Part shown: positions 379 through 9,716 of the stretch, in pieces
How positions within the stretch are numbered: position 1 is the first letter of the stretch
How the letters are laid out: each line of letters begins with the position of its first letter
Origin: Candidatus Hadarchaeum sp.
GTDB lineage: Archaea; Hadarchaeota; Hadarchaeia; Hadarchaeales; Hadarchaeaceae
DNA length: 64,000 nt
Direction of reading: 5' to 3'
NCBI RefSeq assembly: GCF_038871235.1
Contig: NZ_JAVZIN010000004.1
Location: 20,030-84,029, forward strand
Position numbers and translations under genes: made by a program
Notes under the pieces: model-generated
The model's database searches: none
Told to the model about the DNA's origin: nothing
Seen by the model: the letters and a program-made list of their open reading frames with translations, nothing else

Positions 379-3300
379 ATGGAGGATTACTTCAAGGAGC
401 TGGAGCGAAAGACGGAGGAGCTATATAAAATAGCCAGCGAGGCTAGAGCCCAGGGAAAAGACCCCGAACTGGAGCCGGAGATACCTCGGGCGGGTGATTT
501 GGCCAGCAGGGTGGAAAAGCTGGTCGGTCCGGAAGGAGTTGCTGAGGTAATCAGACAGTTGGAGAAGCAGATGCCTCGGGAAGAGGTCGCGCTTAAGATC
601 GCCGAGATGATAGTCGATGGAAAGTTTGGCAAGTTTGACGAGCAGACGGTGGCCAAGCAAGCCGTTAGGACAGCGTTGGCAGTTTTAACTGAGGGGGTTG
701 TCGTGGCCCCGATAGAGGGAATAACAGATGTAAAGATAAAGAACAATTTTGATGGAACACAGTATCTGGCGCTTTATTTTGCCAGCCCGATAAGGGCCGC
801 CGGTGGCACCGCAGCAGCCCTTGCTGTTCTTGCTGGTGACTTCGTCCGCCGTCGACTTTACCTCAGCCCCTATAAGGCGACGGATCGCGAGATAGAGAGA
901 TTTGTCGAGGAAGTTGAAATTTATCGAACTTCAGTTGGCCGTGAGCAGTACACACCGCCGCCAGAGGACATAAGACTGGCCATGCAGAACATACCTGTTG
1001 AAATAACAGGTGATCCATCAGGTAAAGAAGCCGCCGTGATGGCGTTTCGAGATGTCGAAAGGGTTGAACACAACTGGGTTAGGGGCGGAGCCGTGCTGGC
1101 CATGGTGGAGGGAGTCCTGCAAAAAGCCCCCAAGATAATGAAATATGTTAATAAATTGAATATTGATGGTTGGTCTTGGCTTCAGGATATTATCGCCAAG
1201 GCTCCGAGGAAGGAGGAAACTGGACAGGCTTTTCCAAAAGGGGATAAATATCTTGAAGAGGTAATTGCAGGAAGGCCGGTTTTTTCGCATCCAGGAACTG
1301 AGGGACACAAGGGCCGTGAAGGTGGCTTCAGGCTTCGTTATGGCCGGGCAAGGAACACTGGGATTGCCGCCGTTGGTATTCATCCTGCCACCATGGCTAT
1401 CTGTGATGATTTTCTAGTTACCGGAACGCAGCTAAAGACGGAAAGACCGGGCAAAGGCGGAGCGGTTACTCCAGTGGACAGTATCAAGGGTCCCACAGTC
1501 AAACTCAAGGACGGATCAGTGGTCCAGATAAAAACACTGGAGCAGGCGCTGGAGCTGCGGCATCAGATCGAGGAGATACTGTTTTTGGGAGATATACTGA
1601 TCGGCTATGGAGAATTTCTGGAGAACAATCATCCACTGATGCCTGCTGGTTACTGTGAGGAGTGGTGGGCTCAGGAAGTTGAGCGAGCGTTGCAGAGCAA
1701 GAGCTTCGACCAAGCTTTAACCCCATATCTTTCTAGGCCGTACCCCAGCCCACCAGCAGCTCTAGCCATTAAGATCTCGGAAGACTTGGGAGTCCCGCTT
1801 CATCCTGCTTATACCTATTCTTACTCGGAACTGAGCGTAGAGGAACTTCAGGAGCTCTGTACTTGGCTGCTTCGCGGTGAGCCAACCTTTGTAGATGGTG
1901 AGCTTAAGCGATTGTGCTTACCTATGGATCTGGTTCCAAAGAGGGTTTTGGAAGAGATCGGAGTTCCGCACAAAGTTATCGATAATCAAGTGGTCATAGA
2001 AGATCACGCCCTACCGCTCTGTAGGTCTTTGGGAATTTTAGAGGGACAGCGTCTGAGTAAGGATAAATTTGATAGGACGCTTCGGGAGAGCCGGTTCAAA
2101 AGCATTATGGAGATAATTTGTGCTTTGGCTGGTTTTACCATCAGGGAGGAGGGTCCGACACGTATTGGAGCTCGGATGGGCAGGCCCGAAAAAGCAGATC
2201 CAAGGCGGATGAGTCCACCGGTTCACATGCTTTTCCCCGTAAGTCTTCGCGGCGGCATGACACGGAACTTGATAAAGGCCGCGCAGAAAGAGGGCGAAAC
2301 CTCCGTTGAGCTAGCAACTTTAAGGTGTACCAACTGCGGCGAGATCGGTTTCACTAGGAAGTGTCAGAAATGCGGCGGCTTTGCCGAATACGTGAAAAGC
2401 TGTTCCAAATGCAGACGCGTGGTACAGGGCGATGTTTGTCCGACCTGTAAGACCCGCGCCGAGTACTTCATCAAACAAACAATTGACCTTAAGTCGATGC
2501 TGGATTCCGCTGCACAAAAGCTGGGTGAGGAGCTTCCGGAACTAGTCAAAGGAGTGATAGGTATGACGAGTGATTTCAAGATTCCAGAGCCGATAGAAAA
2601 GGGCATTCTTCGCGCCAAGCATGGCGTTGAGGTCTTCAAAGATGGTACCATAAGATTTGATGCCACTGATGTGCCGCTCACCCATTTCATGCCGCGCGAG
2701 ATTGGCACACCGGTGGAACGTCTGCGGGAACTTGGCTACACAGTGGATAAAGATGGAAACCCGCTGGAGCGTGATGATCAACTTGTGGAGTTGAAGGTTC
2801 AGGATATCCTCTTGTCGAAGGATGGGGCCGATTATCTGTTTCGGGCTTCAAAATTCATTGACGATCTTTTACAGAAGTTTTACGGTTTGAGACCTTACTA
2901 TAATGCCAATCAACCATCGGACTTAGTTGGTCATCTAGTGATAGGCCTAGCCCCGCACACATCGGTGGGTGTCGTCGGTCGGATAATCGGTTTTACTGAG
3001 GCCACGGTGGGGTATGCGCACCCATACTTTCATGCTGCCAAACGAAGAGACTGTGATGGCGACGAGGACTGCGTGATGTTGTTGCTCGACGCGCTACTCA
3101 ACTTCAGCAAGCGGTTCTTACCATCCAAGCGGGGTGGGACGATGGACGCACCGCTTATTCTCAGCACTCGCATTGATCCAACCGAAATTGACAAGGAGGC
3201 CCATAATATGGACGTGATGGCTAGGTACCCGCTGGAGTTCTATGAGGCCACGTTGCGTTATGCCAGTCCGGTGGAAGTCGCAAAGATGATGGAAACCGTT

Positions 3301-3804
3301 GAGCGCAGGCTTGGCACAGAATCTCAGTACACTGGATTGAACTTTTCCTTTGATACCAACAATATAGTCGCTGGGGCCCGCTCGAGCAGGTATAAGACTT
3401 TGGAGACAATGGAAGAAAAGACCGATTATCAGCTAAACCTTGCCAGAAAGATCAGGGCAGTTGACGTCCAGGATGTGGCAGAGAGGCTTATCGAGCATCA
3501 CTTTATCCCGGATCTAAAGGGCAACATAAGGACCTTTGCCAGTCAAAAATTCAGGTGTATAAACTGCAATCAGATTCATCGCAGAGTCCCTCTCAGCGGA
3601 GTCTGTGTGAAGTGTGGTGGAAAGCTGGTCCTGACTGTGACTCGAGGTGGCGTGGAAAAATATATGCAGATTGCGATGAGGATTGCCGAGGATTATGGGG
3701 TTTCTGAGTACACCAAACAGCGTCTGGAGCTGACACGGCGTGATATTAGGTCTACTTTTGAAAGCGATGCGAGGAAGCAGATGAGTTTAGCTGATTTTAT
3801 GTAA
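379..3804 (+). CDS. polC: DNA polymerase II large subunit (PolD, DP2)
   Basis: 1142-aa ORF; N-terminus MEDYFKELERKTEELYKIA typical of DP2; multiple CxxC zinc clusters (CTNCGEIGFTRKCQKCG, CSKCRR..CPTC, CINCNQ...CVKCG). I set the start at ATG 379 rather than the track's 325 to avoid overlap with the upstream HAD gene. Confidence 0.9.
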   Translation: MEDYFKELERKTEELYKIASEARAQGKDPELEPEIPRAGDLASRVEKLVGPEGVAEVIRQLEKQMPREEVALKIAEMIVDGKFGKFDEQTVAKQAVRTALAVLTEGVVVAPIEGITDVKIKNNFDGTQYLALYFASPIRAAGGTAAALAVLAGDFVRRRLYLSPYKATDREIERFVEEVEIYRTSVGREQYTPPPEDIRLAMQNIPVEITGDPSGKEAAVMAFRDVERVEHNWVRGGAVLAMVEGVLQKAPKIMKYVNKLNIDGWSWLQDIIAKAPRKEETGQAFPKGDKYLEEVIAGRPVFSHPGTEGHKGREGGFRLRYGRARNTGIAAVGIHPATMAICDDFLVTGTQLKTERPGKGGAVTPVDSIKGPTVKLKDGSVVQIKTLEQALELRHQIEEILFLGDILIGYGEFLENNHPLMPAGYCEEWWAQEVERALQSKSFDQALTPYLSRPYPSPPAALAIKISEDLGVPLHPAYTYSYSELSVEELQELCTWLLRGEPTFVDGELKRLCLPMDLVPKRVLEEIGVPHKVIDNQVVIEDHALPLCRSLGILEGQRLSKDKFDRTLRESRFKSIMEIICALAGFTIREEGPTRIGARMGRPEKADPRRMSPPVHMLFPVSLRGGMTRNLIKAAQKEGETSVELATLRCTNCGEIGFTRKCQKCGGFAEYVKSCSKCRRVVQGDVCPTCKTRAEYFIKQTIDLKSMLDSAAQKLGEELPELVKGVIGMTSDFKIPEPIEKGILRAKHGVEVFKDGTIRFDATDVPLTHFMPREIGTPVERLRELGYTVDKDGNPLERDDQLVELKVQDILLSKDGADYLFRASKFIDDLLQKFYGLRPYYNANQPSDLVGHLVIGLAPHTSVGVVGRIIGFTEATVGYAHPYFHAAKRRDCDGDEDCVMLLLDALLNFSKRFLPSKRGGTMDAPLILSTRIDPTEIDKEAHNMDVMARYPLEFYEATLRYASPVEVAKMMETVERRLGTESQYTGLNFSFDTNNIVAGARSSRYKTLETMEEKTDYQLNLARKIRAVDVQDVAERLIEHHFIPDLKGNIRTFASQKFRCINCNQIHRRVPLSGVCVKCGGKLVLTVTRGGVEKYMQIAMRIAEDYGVSEYTKQRLELTRRDIRSTFESDARKQMSLADFM

Positions 3805-3854
3805 ATTAGGCTTCGCGAAAACATTTTACCCGATGAAGTGAAAAGCTCGTTTGT

Positions 3855-3953
3855 GCCGGGGTAGCCAAGCCAGGTAAGGCGCCAGTCATAAGGGGCGAAA
3901 CTCGAGATCTGGTTCTCCTTCGGAGAGCGGGGGTTCAAATCCCCTCCCCGGCG
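3855..3953 (+). tRNA. Intron-containing type II tRNA, most consistent with tRNA-Ser(CGA)
   Basis: Acceptor GCCGGGG/CCCCGGC, T-arm GGGGG-TTCAAAT-CCCCT, long variable hairpin TCTCC-TTC-GGAGA, discriminator G73. Removing 14 nt (3887-3900, cataaggggcgaaa) gives anticodon loop C-U-CGA-G-A. TATA-like box near 3818-3830. Confidence 0.6.
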
Positions 3954-4021
3954 CCTATTTTCAGCCACAAGCGCAGATTTTTCGAAATTTCTACTATTAT
4001 CCAGTTCAGAAACCATGCAGA

Positions 4022-4624
4022 TTAAGGTGACAGTAGTTGACGCTCCGTTACCTCGCCGCCAGGTTTTTTCTCGCAGAAAACCTGAGCCGAGAACCTGCTT
4101 ACACGAACGCCTCGTTCTAGCCAGCAATCGGGCATCAAACCTGCCTTGATACAGGTATTGGAGAGAAATTCTTCAGCATCCCAGCCGTACTCGACAGCGA
4201 CTTGGGGCAGCAGCAAACCTGCACACCCCATTCCTTCCACTATCAAGCCATCCCTTCCGATTTTTATTAGTTTAGGATATTCCTTAGGGTGTTCAGCTTT
4301 CAAAGTTTCCGGTTTTGTCAGAACACTAACTTCGATCCCTATATGTTGGAGTTCTTTAGGACTTACAGGGGGGAAACGGGGATCACGGGTGGCAGCGCTT
4401 ATCGCCGAGTCGATTAAAGCATCGATCAAGGGCAGGTTCGGCATCGGGTGTCCGATGCACCCTCTCAATTCACCATTTTTGGTGAGTGTGACAAAAACCC
4501 CGCCTGGCTCCAGAAGCTTAGTAGGTACTTTTGGTCTGGGGAGGATCTTACCACTGTAGAGATAGGTCTCTATTGTTCGCCGGGCAATCTTTACCAGCAG
4601 GGTACCTTCATCGAGAGTTAACAT
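4022..4624 (-). CDS. AMMECR1 domain protein
   Basis: 200 aa; ...LRGCIGHP... motif characteristic of the AMMECR1 family; length typical. Confidence 0.75.
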   Translation of the reverse strand: MLTLDEGTLLVKIARRTIETYLYSGKILPRPKVPTKLLEPGGVFVTLTKNGELRGCIGHPMPNLPLIDALIDSAISAATRDPRFPPVSPKELQHIGIEVSVLTKPETLKAEHPKEYPKLIKIGRDGLIVEGMGCAGLLLPQVAVEYGWDAEEFLSNTCIKAGLMPDCWLERGVRVSRFSAQVFCEKKPGGEVTERQLLSP

Positions 4625-9560: not shown

Positions 9561-9716
9561 GGGGCCGTGGTGTAGCTTGGCTAGCACTCCAGCACTGTCT
9601 GGGCTAAAAGCAGGCTCCAGTGGACCGTCGTGGGTCTGCTGACGTAAGGATGATGACCCATTGGAGCGGTGCGATGAGACCTGCGAACCCGGGTTCAAAT
9701 CCTGGCGGCCCCACCA
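9561..9716 (+). tRNA. tRNA-Trp(CCA) with a long intron after position 37 (9621-9678) and an additional ~21-nt insertion between D-stem and anticodon stem (9588-9609); CCA encoded
   Basis: Acceptor GGGGCCG/CGGCCCC, discriminator A, then CCA. D-arm GUGU-AGCUUGGCUA-GCAC. Anticodon stem GCAGG(9610-14)/CCUGC(9680-84) with loop C-U-CCA-G. T-arm CCGGG-TTCAAAT-CCTGG. TATA-like box at 9529-9536. Confidence 0.7.

Follow-up and report, generated by a model that had tools for sequence, protein, structure and literature searches.

In the stretch of Candidatus Hadarchaeum sp. DNA analysed here (64,000 nucleotides, hereafter called the window), positions 3855-3953 of the plus strand very probably form a functional tRNA-Ser(CGA) gene of Hadarchaeum, carrying a 14-nt intron between tRNA positions 30 and 31 that is spliced by way of a motif of the bulge-helix-bulge (BHB) kind. 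Judged from the conserved PolD-linked locus and the pairing of the cloverleaf, the presence of a tRNA-Ser(CGA) gene is well beyond chance, and the intron boundaries at 30/31 are established, at the level of sequence, by comparison with intronless orthologues. The window corresponds to contig JAVZKV010000001.1 of NCBI assembly GCA_038884095.1, and its DNA is 91.5% identical over 4.4 kb to a metagenome-assembled genome (MAG) of Hadarchaeum, a genus of hot-spring archaea in the Hadarchaeota (kingdom Methanobacteriati). An earlier first-pass annotation of this DNA had remarked that non-canonical intron positions mark Thermoproteales, Korarchaeota and relatives, which is inapplicable since the host is a Hadarchaeum.

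Identity and extent of the tRNA gene

The gene matches the Rfam tRNA family (RF00005) at 3855-3953 on the plus strand with 45.4 bits (E=1.8e-06, gathering threshold 29), and the 38-nt block left unaligned in this match corresponds to the anticodon loop and variable arm region. ARAGORN run on the window with the intron option (-i) reported a tRNA-Ser(cga) whose intron, 14 nt long, begins at gene position 34, and the spliced product reached a score of 118.8. Without this option, ARAGORN returned no tRNA call in the whole window. From 5' to 3', the gene reads GCCGGGG-TA-GCCA...GGC-G-CCAG-[TCATAAGGGGCGAA]-A-CTCGAGA-TCTGG, followed by the variable hairpin TCTCC-TTC-GGAGA and by GGGGG-TTCAAAT-CCCCT-CCCCGGC-G. 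The following features were assigned:

3813 to 3831, plus strand: putative archaeal promoter, a BRE/TATA-like block tcgcgaaaacattttaccc, about -42 to -24 from the tRNA start
3855 to 3885, plus strand: 5' exon, tRNA positions 1-30 (acceptor 5' strand, D arm, G26, C27-G30)
3886 to 3899, plus strand: intron, 14 nt, TCATAAGGGGCGAA, between tRNA positions 30 and 31, seen as a gap against six intronless orthologues
3900 to 3953, plus strand: 3' exon, tRNA positions 31-73 (A31, anticodon loop, 3' anticodon stem, variable arm, T arm, acceptor 3' strand, G73)
3903 to 3905, plus strand: anticodon CGA, reading the serine codon UCG, from ARAGORN on the gene and on the spliced product
3913 to 3928, plus strand: long variable region (type II), 16 nt, with a 5-bp hairpin UCUCC-UUC-GGAGA
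3958 to 3961, plus strand: oligo-T tract, a likely transcription stop

The 5' exon was delimited by the Rfam match, the ARAGORN drawing of the spliced product and the alignment with intronless orthologues. G3953 is G73, the serine discriminator (leucine uses A73), which together with the long variable arm would serve as an identity element for archaeal SerRS; the CCA end is only partly encoded (GCG-CCT). Upstream of the gene, the tcgcgaaaacattttaccc block hardly changes across all Hadarchaeum loci that carry the intron, in contrast to the variable spacer around it, and its position and A/T-rich, TATA-like composition point to a putative promoter. Downstream, a T-run is present 3-8 nt after G73-C-C in all Hadarchaeum loci, which suggests its likely role in transcription stop.

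Much of this had been read correctly in the first-pass annotation: a tRNA at exactly these coordinates and on this strand; its acceptor stem, T arm, variable hairpin and G73, all seen in the sequence and in the ARAGORN drawing; its type II serine identity with anticodon CGA and loop C32-U33-CGA-G37-A38, returned by ARAGORN on both gene and spliced product; a 14-nt intron at a non-canonical site, borne out by ARAGORN -i and by the gap against the six intronless orthologues; and the expectation that a default gene finder would miss the gene. For annotation this means that a default finder (ARAGORN) overlooks the gene, or that a wrongly placed junction predicts a mismatched anticodon stem.

A mechanically predicted open reading frame (ORF) of 144 aa runs antisense across the tRNA (window 3693-4127, minus strand). 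In a Logan assembly of the same organism (L002), a 107-aa hypothetical protein without any Pfam match was called over the tRNA at 3609-3932; this call is probably spurious, because the intron-containing tRNA was not recognised.

Homologous loci with and without the intron

In a scan with one genome per species, 19 stretches turned up in which a Ser(CGA)-like gene has additional sequence inserted upstream of C32; the search pattern required such an insertion and is thus uninformative on intronless genes in the named genomes. Four of the 19 are near-identical to the window, namely those of Ca. Hadarchaeum yellowstonense YNP_45, two Hadarchaeum MAGs and Hadesarchaea MAG-18. Metagenome contigs, scanned with the D arm and CTCGAGA as anchors, contributed two further intron carriers and six intronless genes.

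The tRNA lies downstream of the gene for the PolD large subunit in 13 loci, and immediately downstream of it in all intron carriers. In the latter, the PolD protein is 88-97% identical to that of the window, the gap between PolD and tRNA is about 50 nt and AMMECR1 comes next, so that in all seven intron-carrying loci the tRNA sits directly between PolD and AMMECR1 with zero insertions. The intronless loci have a PolD protein 59-68% identical to that of the window, and their distance from PolD to the tRNA is about 35 nt at the lower end (L029) and reaches 1-5 kb in others (L030, L023, L026). Since all of them are downstream of PolD, and given this level of PolD identity, the intronless genes can most probably be regarded as positional orthologues in more distantly related lineages.

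In a MAFFT alignment, the intronless genes read GGCG(C/G)CAG-ACTCGAGATCTG and share their 5' half with the window gene. Around the site itself, the six intronless genes read ...GCCAG^ACTCGAGA..., and the alignment gap is exactly 3886-3899. This is the only single 14-nt deletion by which the empty-site sequence can be reached from the window sequence. At position 31 the six intronless genes have A throughout, T being found in none.

Among the seven carrier sequences, variation within the intron is confined to 3889-3892, and three carriers (L010, L024, L028) have a 13-nt intron with one loop nucleotide fewer. The UCA, G3893, GGCG and AA of the intron are invariant. All four variable intron columns fall within the five loop positions 3888-3892, for which we estimate a chance of about 5/1001. 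A fixed helix, fixed bulges and a fixed closing pair combined with a drifting loop make up the pattern expected if the former are constrained and the loop is free. The nucleotides of the proposed central helix are identical in 7/7 carriers, and with zero variation there is hence zero covariation signal for this helix.

The cloverleaf, with A3900 taken as nucleotide 31, is paired in 99.6% of cells over 10 distinct rows, compared to 33-58% in shifted-partner controls. Six of its pairs changed on both sides in a compensatory way, including 3/5 pairs of the variable hairpin between the Hadarchaeum clade and the intronless orthologues, and A31-U39 is kept in 10/10 distinct rows.

These comparisons also bear on the possibility that the locus is a decaying, non-spliced tRNA pseudogene, inactivated by insertion of the 14-nt block, with another copy supplying tRNA-Ser(CGA). 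The weakness of the helices flanking the BHB, which compete with the D stem, would fit such an explanation. The exons, however, hardly vary between Hadarchaeum lineages, even though the DNA next to the gene is only 77-92% identical among them; two exon positions alone vary, one of which changes the pair G49·U65 to A49-U65. Moreover, the insertion retains exactly the nucleotides required for the BHB while its loop drifts, and both the promoter-like block and the T-tract are conserved. We therefore consider a pseudogene highly improbable and retain the reading of a functional, intron-containing gene.

Bulge-helix-bulge motif and splicing

Every 14-nt excision and every 4/4 central helix in the anticodon arm was enumerated, using a rule in which a 4-bp helix is flanked by a 3-nt bulge on each strand and the cut follows the second bulge nucleotide. 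This rule fits canonical pre-tRNAs because anticodon nucleotides 34-35 are part of their central helix (PMC4090602), and it also results in clean cloverleaves for the tRNA-Pro and tRNA-Trp genes of the window. Within the anticodon arm, 3886-3899 is the sole 14-nt block whose excision has two 3-nt bulges together with a central helix in which all 4 bp are formed. The motif consists of the following elements (^, cut):

3878 to 3879, plus strand: 5' strand of outer helix h, 2 bp (G3878·U3902, G3879-C3901)
3880 to 3883, plus strand: 5' strand of the central helix, CGCC (tRNA C25, G26, C27, C28)
3884 to 3886, plus strand: 5' splice-site bulge A-G^U, cut after G3885 (position 30) by the geometry rule
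3887 to 3893, plus strand: intron-internal closing pair C3887-G3893 (minimal h') around a variable loop of 4-5 nt
3894 to 3897, plus strand: 3' strand of the central helix, GGCG, invariant in the seven carrier sequences
3898 to 3900, plus strand: 3' splice-site bulge A-A^A, cut after A3899, A3900 becoming A31

All pairs of the central helix (CGCC 3880-83 with GGCG 3894-97) are Watson-Crick, and excision of 3886-3899 shows the defining arrangement of a BHB: two opposed 3-nt bulges, which hold the splice sites, on either side of a 4-bp helix. The strict hBHBh' form, with h and h' of at least 2 bp each, is not present, h having 2 bp including a G·U pair and h' 1 bp. As h' consists of a single pair, the 5' site is effectively located in a loop and the motif is relaxed, resembling a bulge-helix-loop (BHL). 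C3887 and G3893 are nonetheless invariant in all carriers, while the positions that they enclose differ in sequence and length. In four named relatives (L010, L015, L016, L018), the same BHB is the best single-excision solution.

Removal of the 14 nt restores A31-U39, with a 5-bp stem CCAGA/UCUGG and a 7-nt loop CUCGAGA. Over the 16 possible 14-nt excisions, the ARAGORN score has its maximum of 118.8 at 30/31, compared to 112.2 for the 31/32 junction and 106.9 for the canonical 37/38 junction (the A33 'Leu-UAA'). For splicing at 30/31, the predicted mature junction is GGCGCCAG-ACUCGAGAUCUGG and the predicted excised 14-nt intron RNA is UCAUAAGGGGCGAA.

The first-pass annotation had placed the intron of the same tRNA-Ser(CGA) at 3887-3900 or 3888-3901 (31/32 or 32/33), which keeps U3886 as nucleotide 31 and, for 31/32, would result in the mature junction GGCGCCAGU^CUCGAG. 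The anticodon loop produced is identical, and the intron start given by ARAGORN -i at gene position 34 is equivalent to 32/33; thus the proposed ARAGORN check confirmed the isoacceptor and the intron length while its reported start coincides with a shifted junction. A tRNA-Ser(CGA) of a Thermofilaceae MAG (L004), in addition, has a BHB-supported 13-nt intron at 32/33. Against these positions, the 31/32 junction leaves a U31·U39 mismatch with the lower ARAGORN score given above, the 4-nt segments needed for a central helix (GCCA/GCGA and CCAG/CGAA) do not pair, and A is found at position 31 in 6/6 intronless orthologues. We consequently regard the shifted junctions as very unlikely and place the block 1-2 nt further 5', at 3886-3899. 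A BHB-supported splice at another position with a different anticodon, which the first-pass annotation had named as speaking against its reading, is thus found as far as the position is concerned, the anticodon remaining CGA.

A canonical 37/38 intron, GGGCGAAACTCGAG, would instead turn the gene into a type II tRNA-Leu(UAA) with the loop C-A-U-A-A-G-A. Such a product would need A33 in place of U33, which is universal in tRNAs, and would combine a leucine anticodon with the serine discriminator G73 rather than the A73 of leucine tRNAs. ARAGORN does call the excisions at 3890-3895 as Leu(taa), but with lower scores (104-110); the BHB is absent, CAUA and CUCG being unpaired, and the intronless orthologues, with their loop CTCGAGA, refute it. 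Even though no other archaeal tRNA intron site is nearly as common as 37/38 (PMC4090602), we give this placement practically no credence, in agreement with the first-pass annotation, which had already dismissed it, and the 30/31 intron is retained.

Folding of the pre-tRNA, which the first-pass annotation had suggested as a check for a relaxed BHB, gave a temperature-dependent outcome. The BHB is absent from the minimum free energy (MFE) fold of the whole pre-tRNA at 37 C, where a constrained fold with the BHB central helix forced lies 1.7 kcal/mol above the MFE, and the helix is part of the MFE fold at 75 C. Folding of a 30-nt fragment at 37 C favours a shifted register and not the BHB; this register was rejected, as it depends on G3892, which is A or U in relatives. 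G3878 and G3879 are G23 and G24 of the D stem, so that the D stem must open to form the outer helix h, and by these models formation of the BHB would require melting of the 3-bp D stem as well as of the anticodon stem. Such refolding is normal for non-canonical introns. The flanking helices are weak and the motif is relaxed, and cleavage by an alpha4-type enzyme would not be guaranteed.

We propose that the pre-tRNA adopts an alternative local fold in which C25-G26-C27-C28 would pair with the GGCG of the intron, so that the bulges AG^U and AA^A, each of 3 nt, would expose the splice sites. The 2-bp outer helix would close this fold on one side and the single C-G pair, around its loop of 4-5 nt, on the other, making it effectively a bulge-helix-loop. 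The tRNA splicing endonuclease EndA would presumably cut both bulges, after G3885 and after A3899, and a tRNA ligase (RtcB) would join G30 to A31. The expected product is a tRNA of 85 nt whose anticodon arm has the stem CCAGA/UCUGG and the loop CUCGAGA, and which G73 and the long variable arm would direct to SerRS for charging with serine. A crude motif scan of the 64-kb window detected no EndA catalytic motif. According to Kaneta et al. (2018, PMC5829648), Hadesarchaea combine an alpha4 EndA having an L3 insert with many disrupted tRNA genes.

Integrating elements and known tRNA introns

In one intronless orthologue, on metagenome contig Ga0065719_116775 (L025), the stretch 1289-4058 holds the integration site of a 2.7-kb element, on one side of which lies a 39-nt 5' tRNA fragment and on the other the full gene. 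Its genes code for a tyrosine integrase (PF00589, 8.1e-13; archaeal phage integrase PF16795), a CcdA-like antitoxin and, with 298 aa, a protein of unknown function. The 43-nt direct repeat on either side of the element consists of TGGA (4 upstream nt) and tRNA positions 1-38. This att repeat spans 30/31, where the Hadarchaeum intron splits the stretch. Beside PolD, partial tRNA copies are present only in L025 and absent in L023, L026 and L030. In viral contigs, a scan for the att/tRNA 5' half in its forms with and without the intron yielded 0 matches.

Two further loci showed signs of rearrangement next to the tRNA. The 5' flank of the intronless tRNA in L027 (about 916-977, minus strand) is similar to the flank that, in L025, adjoins the full tRNA copy on the side of the element (3988-4015), with the common motif ...gtaaa.ctttatctct.cc...c.a..tgga, which suggests that the 5' half and promoter of the L027 tRNA may also derive from an integrated element or remnant. 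The distance from the PolD stop to the tRNA is about 2.1 kb in L023 and about 5.1 kb in L026 while their tRNA sequences are identical, suggestive of an insertion/deletion polymorphism beside the tRNA.

In Caldiarchaeum subterraneum, intron gain at an att site has been described for tRNA-Thr(GGU) (Sugahara et al. 2012, PMC3293823), by authors who stated direct evidence to be lacking for the idea of Randau and Soll that introns protect att sites. Like in that case, orthologous tRNA genes with and without a non-canonical intron occur here in related lineages and, in line with the Randau-Soll idea, an integrase-bearing element uses the intronless version as att site. Unlike in Caldiarchaeum, the intron-bearing and element-bearing alleles are found in fairly distant lineages (PolD about 68% identical), and our searches found no element with an intron-containing attP; on both grounds the link between intron and att site is correlative. 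The position of the Hadarchaeum intron within the att stretch is compatible both with protection as conceived by Randau and Soll and with the delivery model of Sugahara et al. That the 30/31 intron was fixed by breaking the att site of integrase-bearing elements, or was delivered by such an element, is a speculative scenario that we consider rather unlikely. If true, it would offer a natural paired comparison in support of the Randau-Soll hypothesis.

Each of the three tRNA genes in the window has at least one non-canonical intron. The tRNA-Pro(CGG) gene (34741-34859, plus strand) contains two: a 24-nt intron at 33/34 (34777-34800), in a strict hBHBh' motif with central helix TGGC/GCCG, h=4 and h'=5, and a 20-nt intron at 37/38 (34805-34824) with central helix UUCG/CGUA including one U·U. 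This second central helix exists only after removal of the first intron, which implies ordered splicing. With both introns removed, the sequence scores 124.0 in ARAGORN as Pro(cgg), and ARAGORN -i alone miscalls the gene as Leu(taa) with a 44-nt intron. An Orc1/Cdc6-like ORF (33491-34699, plus strand), recognised by eye from its Walker A motif GSVGVGKT, ends about 40 nt before tRNA-Pro, and a replication origin may be located near it.

The tRNA-Trp(CCA) gene (9561-9716, plus strand) has two introns and an encoded CCA end, and falls below the Rfam gathering threshold. Its first intron, at 25/26 (9588-9608), is a 21-nt BHB intron with central helix TAGC/GCTA, h=2 and h'=4. The second insert, at 37/38, is 58 nt long (9621-9678) and contains box C/D motifs (AUGAUGA 9650-56, CUGA 9639-42, GAUGAGA 9673-79) together with two 10-bp guide duplexes aimed at C34 and position 39, an arrangement shared with the known euryarchaeal tRNA-Trp intron sRNA. 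A clean BHB was looked for in this 58-nt insert and not found. After removal of both inserts, the sequence scores 121.9 as Trp(cca).

Insertions just upstream of C32 were also observed in tRNA-Ser(CGA) genes of other archaea. Those of two Thermoproteota MAGs, L007 ('Kor3') and L013 (B14_G2), have an apparent second insertion after position 38, and that of Pyrobaculum oguniense (L008) has an insert of 22 nt, for which no solution under the strict BHB rule was found by hand analysis.

The tRNA-Ser(CGA) intron at 30/31 is a well-bounded new example of an already documented intron type at an already documented site, and leaves current understanding unchanged. Position 30/31 is listed among the known non-canonical positions of archaeal tRNA introns, and archaeal BHB/BHL introns range in length from 11 to 129 nt (PMC4090602). 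Among the papers searched, none was found to describe the Ser(CGA) 30/31 intron. For Hadesarchaea YNP_N21, from the same lineage, a set of disrupted tRNA genes has been predicted (Kaneta et al. 2018, PMC5829648), of which the paper gives summary proportions only. To the richness of Hadarchaeota in non-canonical and multiple tRNA introns, the present gene adds a case with an empty-site control. It furthermore bears on the relation between endonuclease architecture and substrate range, as Hadarchaeota are reported to have an alpha4-type endonuclease; with its 1-bp h' and the melting of the D stem, the relaxed motif would be a convenient natural substrate for studying the specificity of L3-loop alpha4 enzymes.

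A close counterpart of the intron is that of the Thermofilaceae MAG L004, found in the same isoacceptor, of similar mini-intron size (13 nt) and obeying the same BHB rule, with central helix GUGG/CCAC and a loop-like h' of 1 bp. It differs in that its central helix lies 2 nt further 3', which moves the intron to 32/33, and in having an unrelated intron sequence in a different phylum. Like the non-canonical BHB/BHL introns surveyed before (Marck & Grosjean 2003; Sugahara et al. 2008; PMC4090602), the Hadarchaeum intron is short, lies outside 37/38 and, through pairing of exon with intron, forms a central helix of 4 bp set between two 3-nt bulges; whereas those are mostly from Crenarchaeota, Nanoarchaeota and relatives, the present one belongs to the Hadarchaeota, on the euryarchaeal side.
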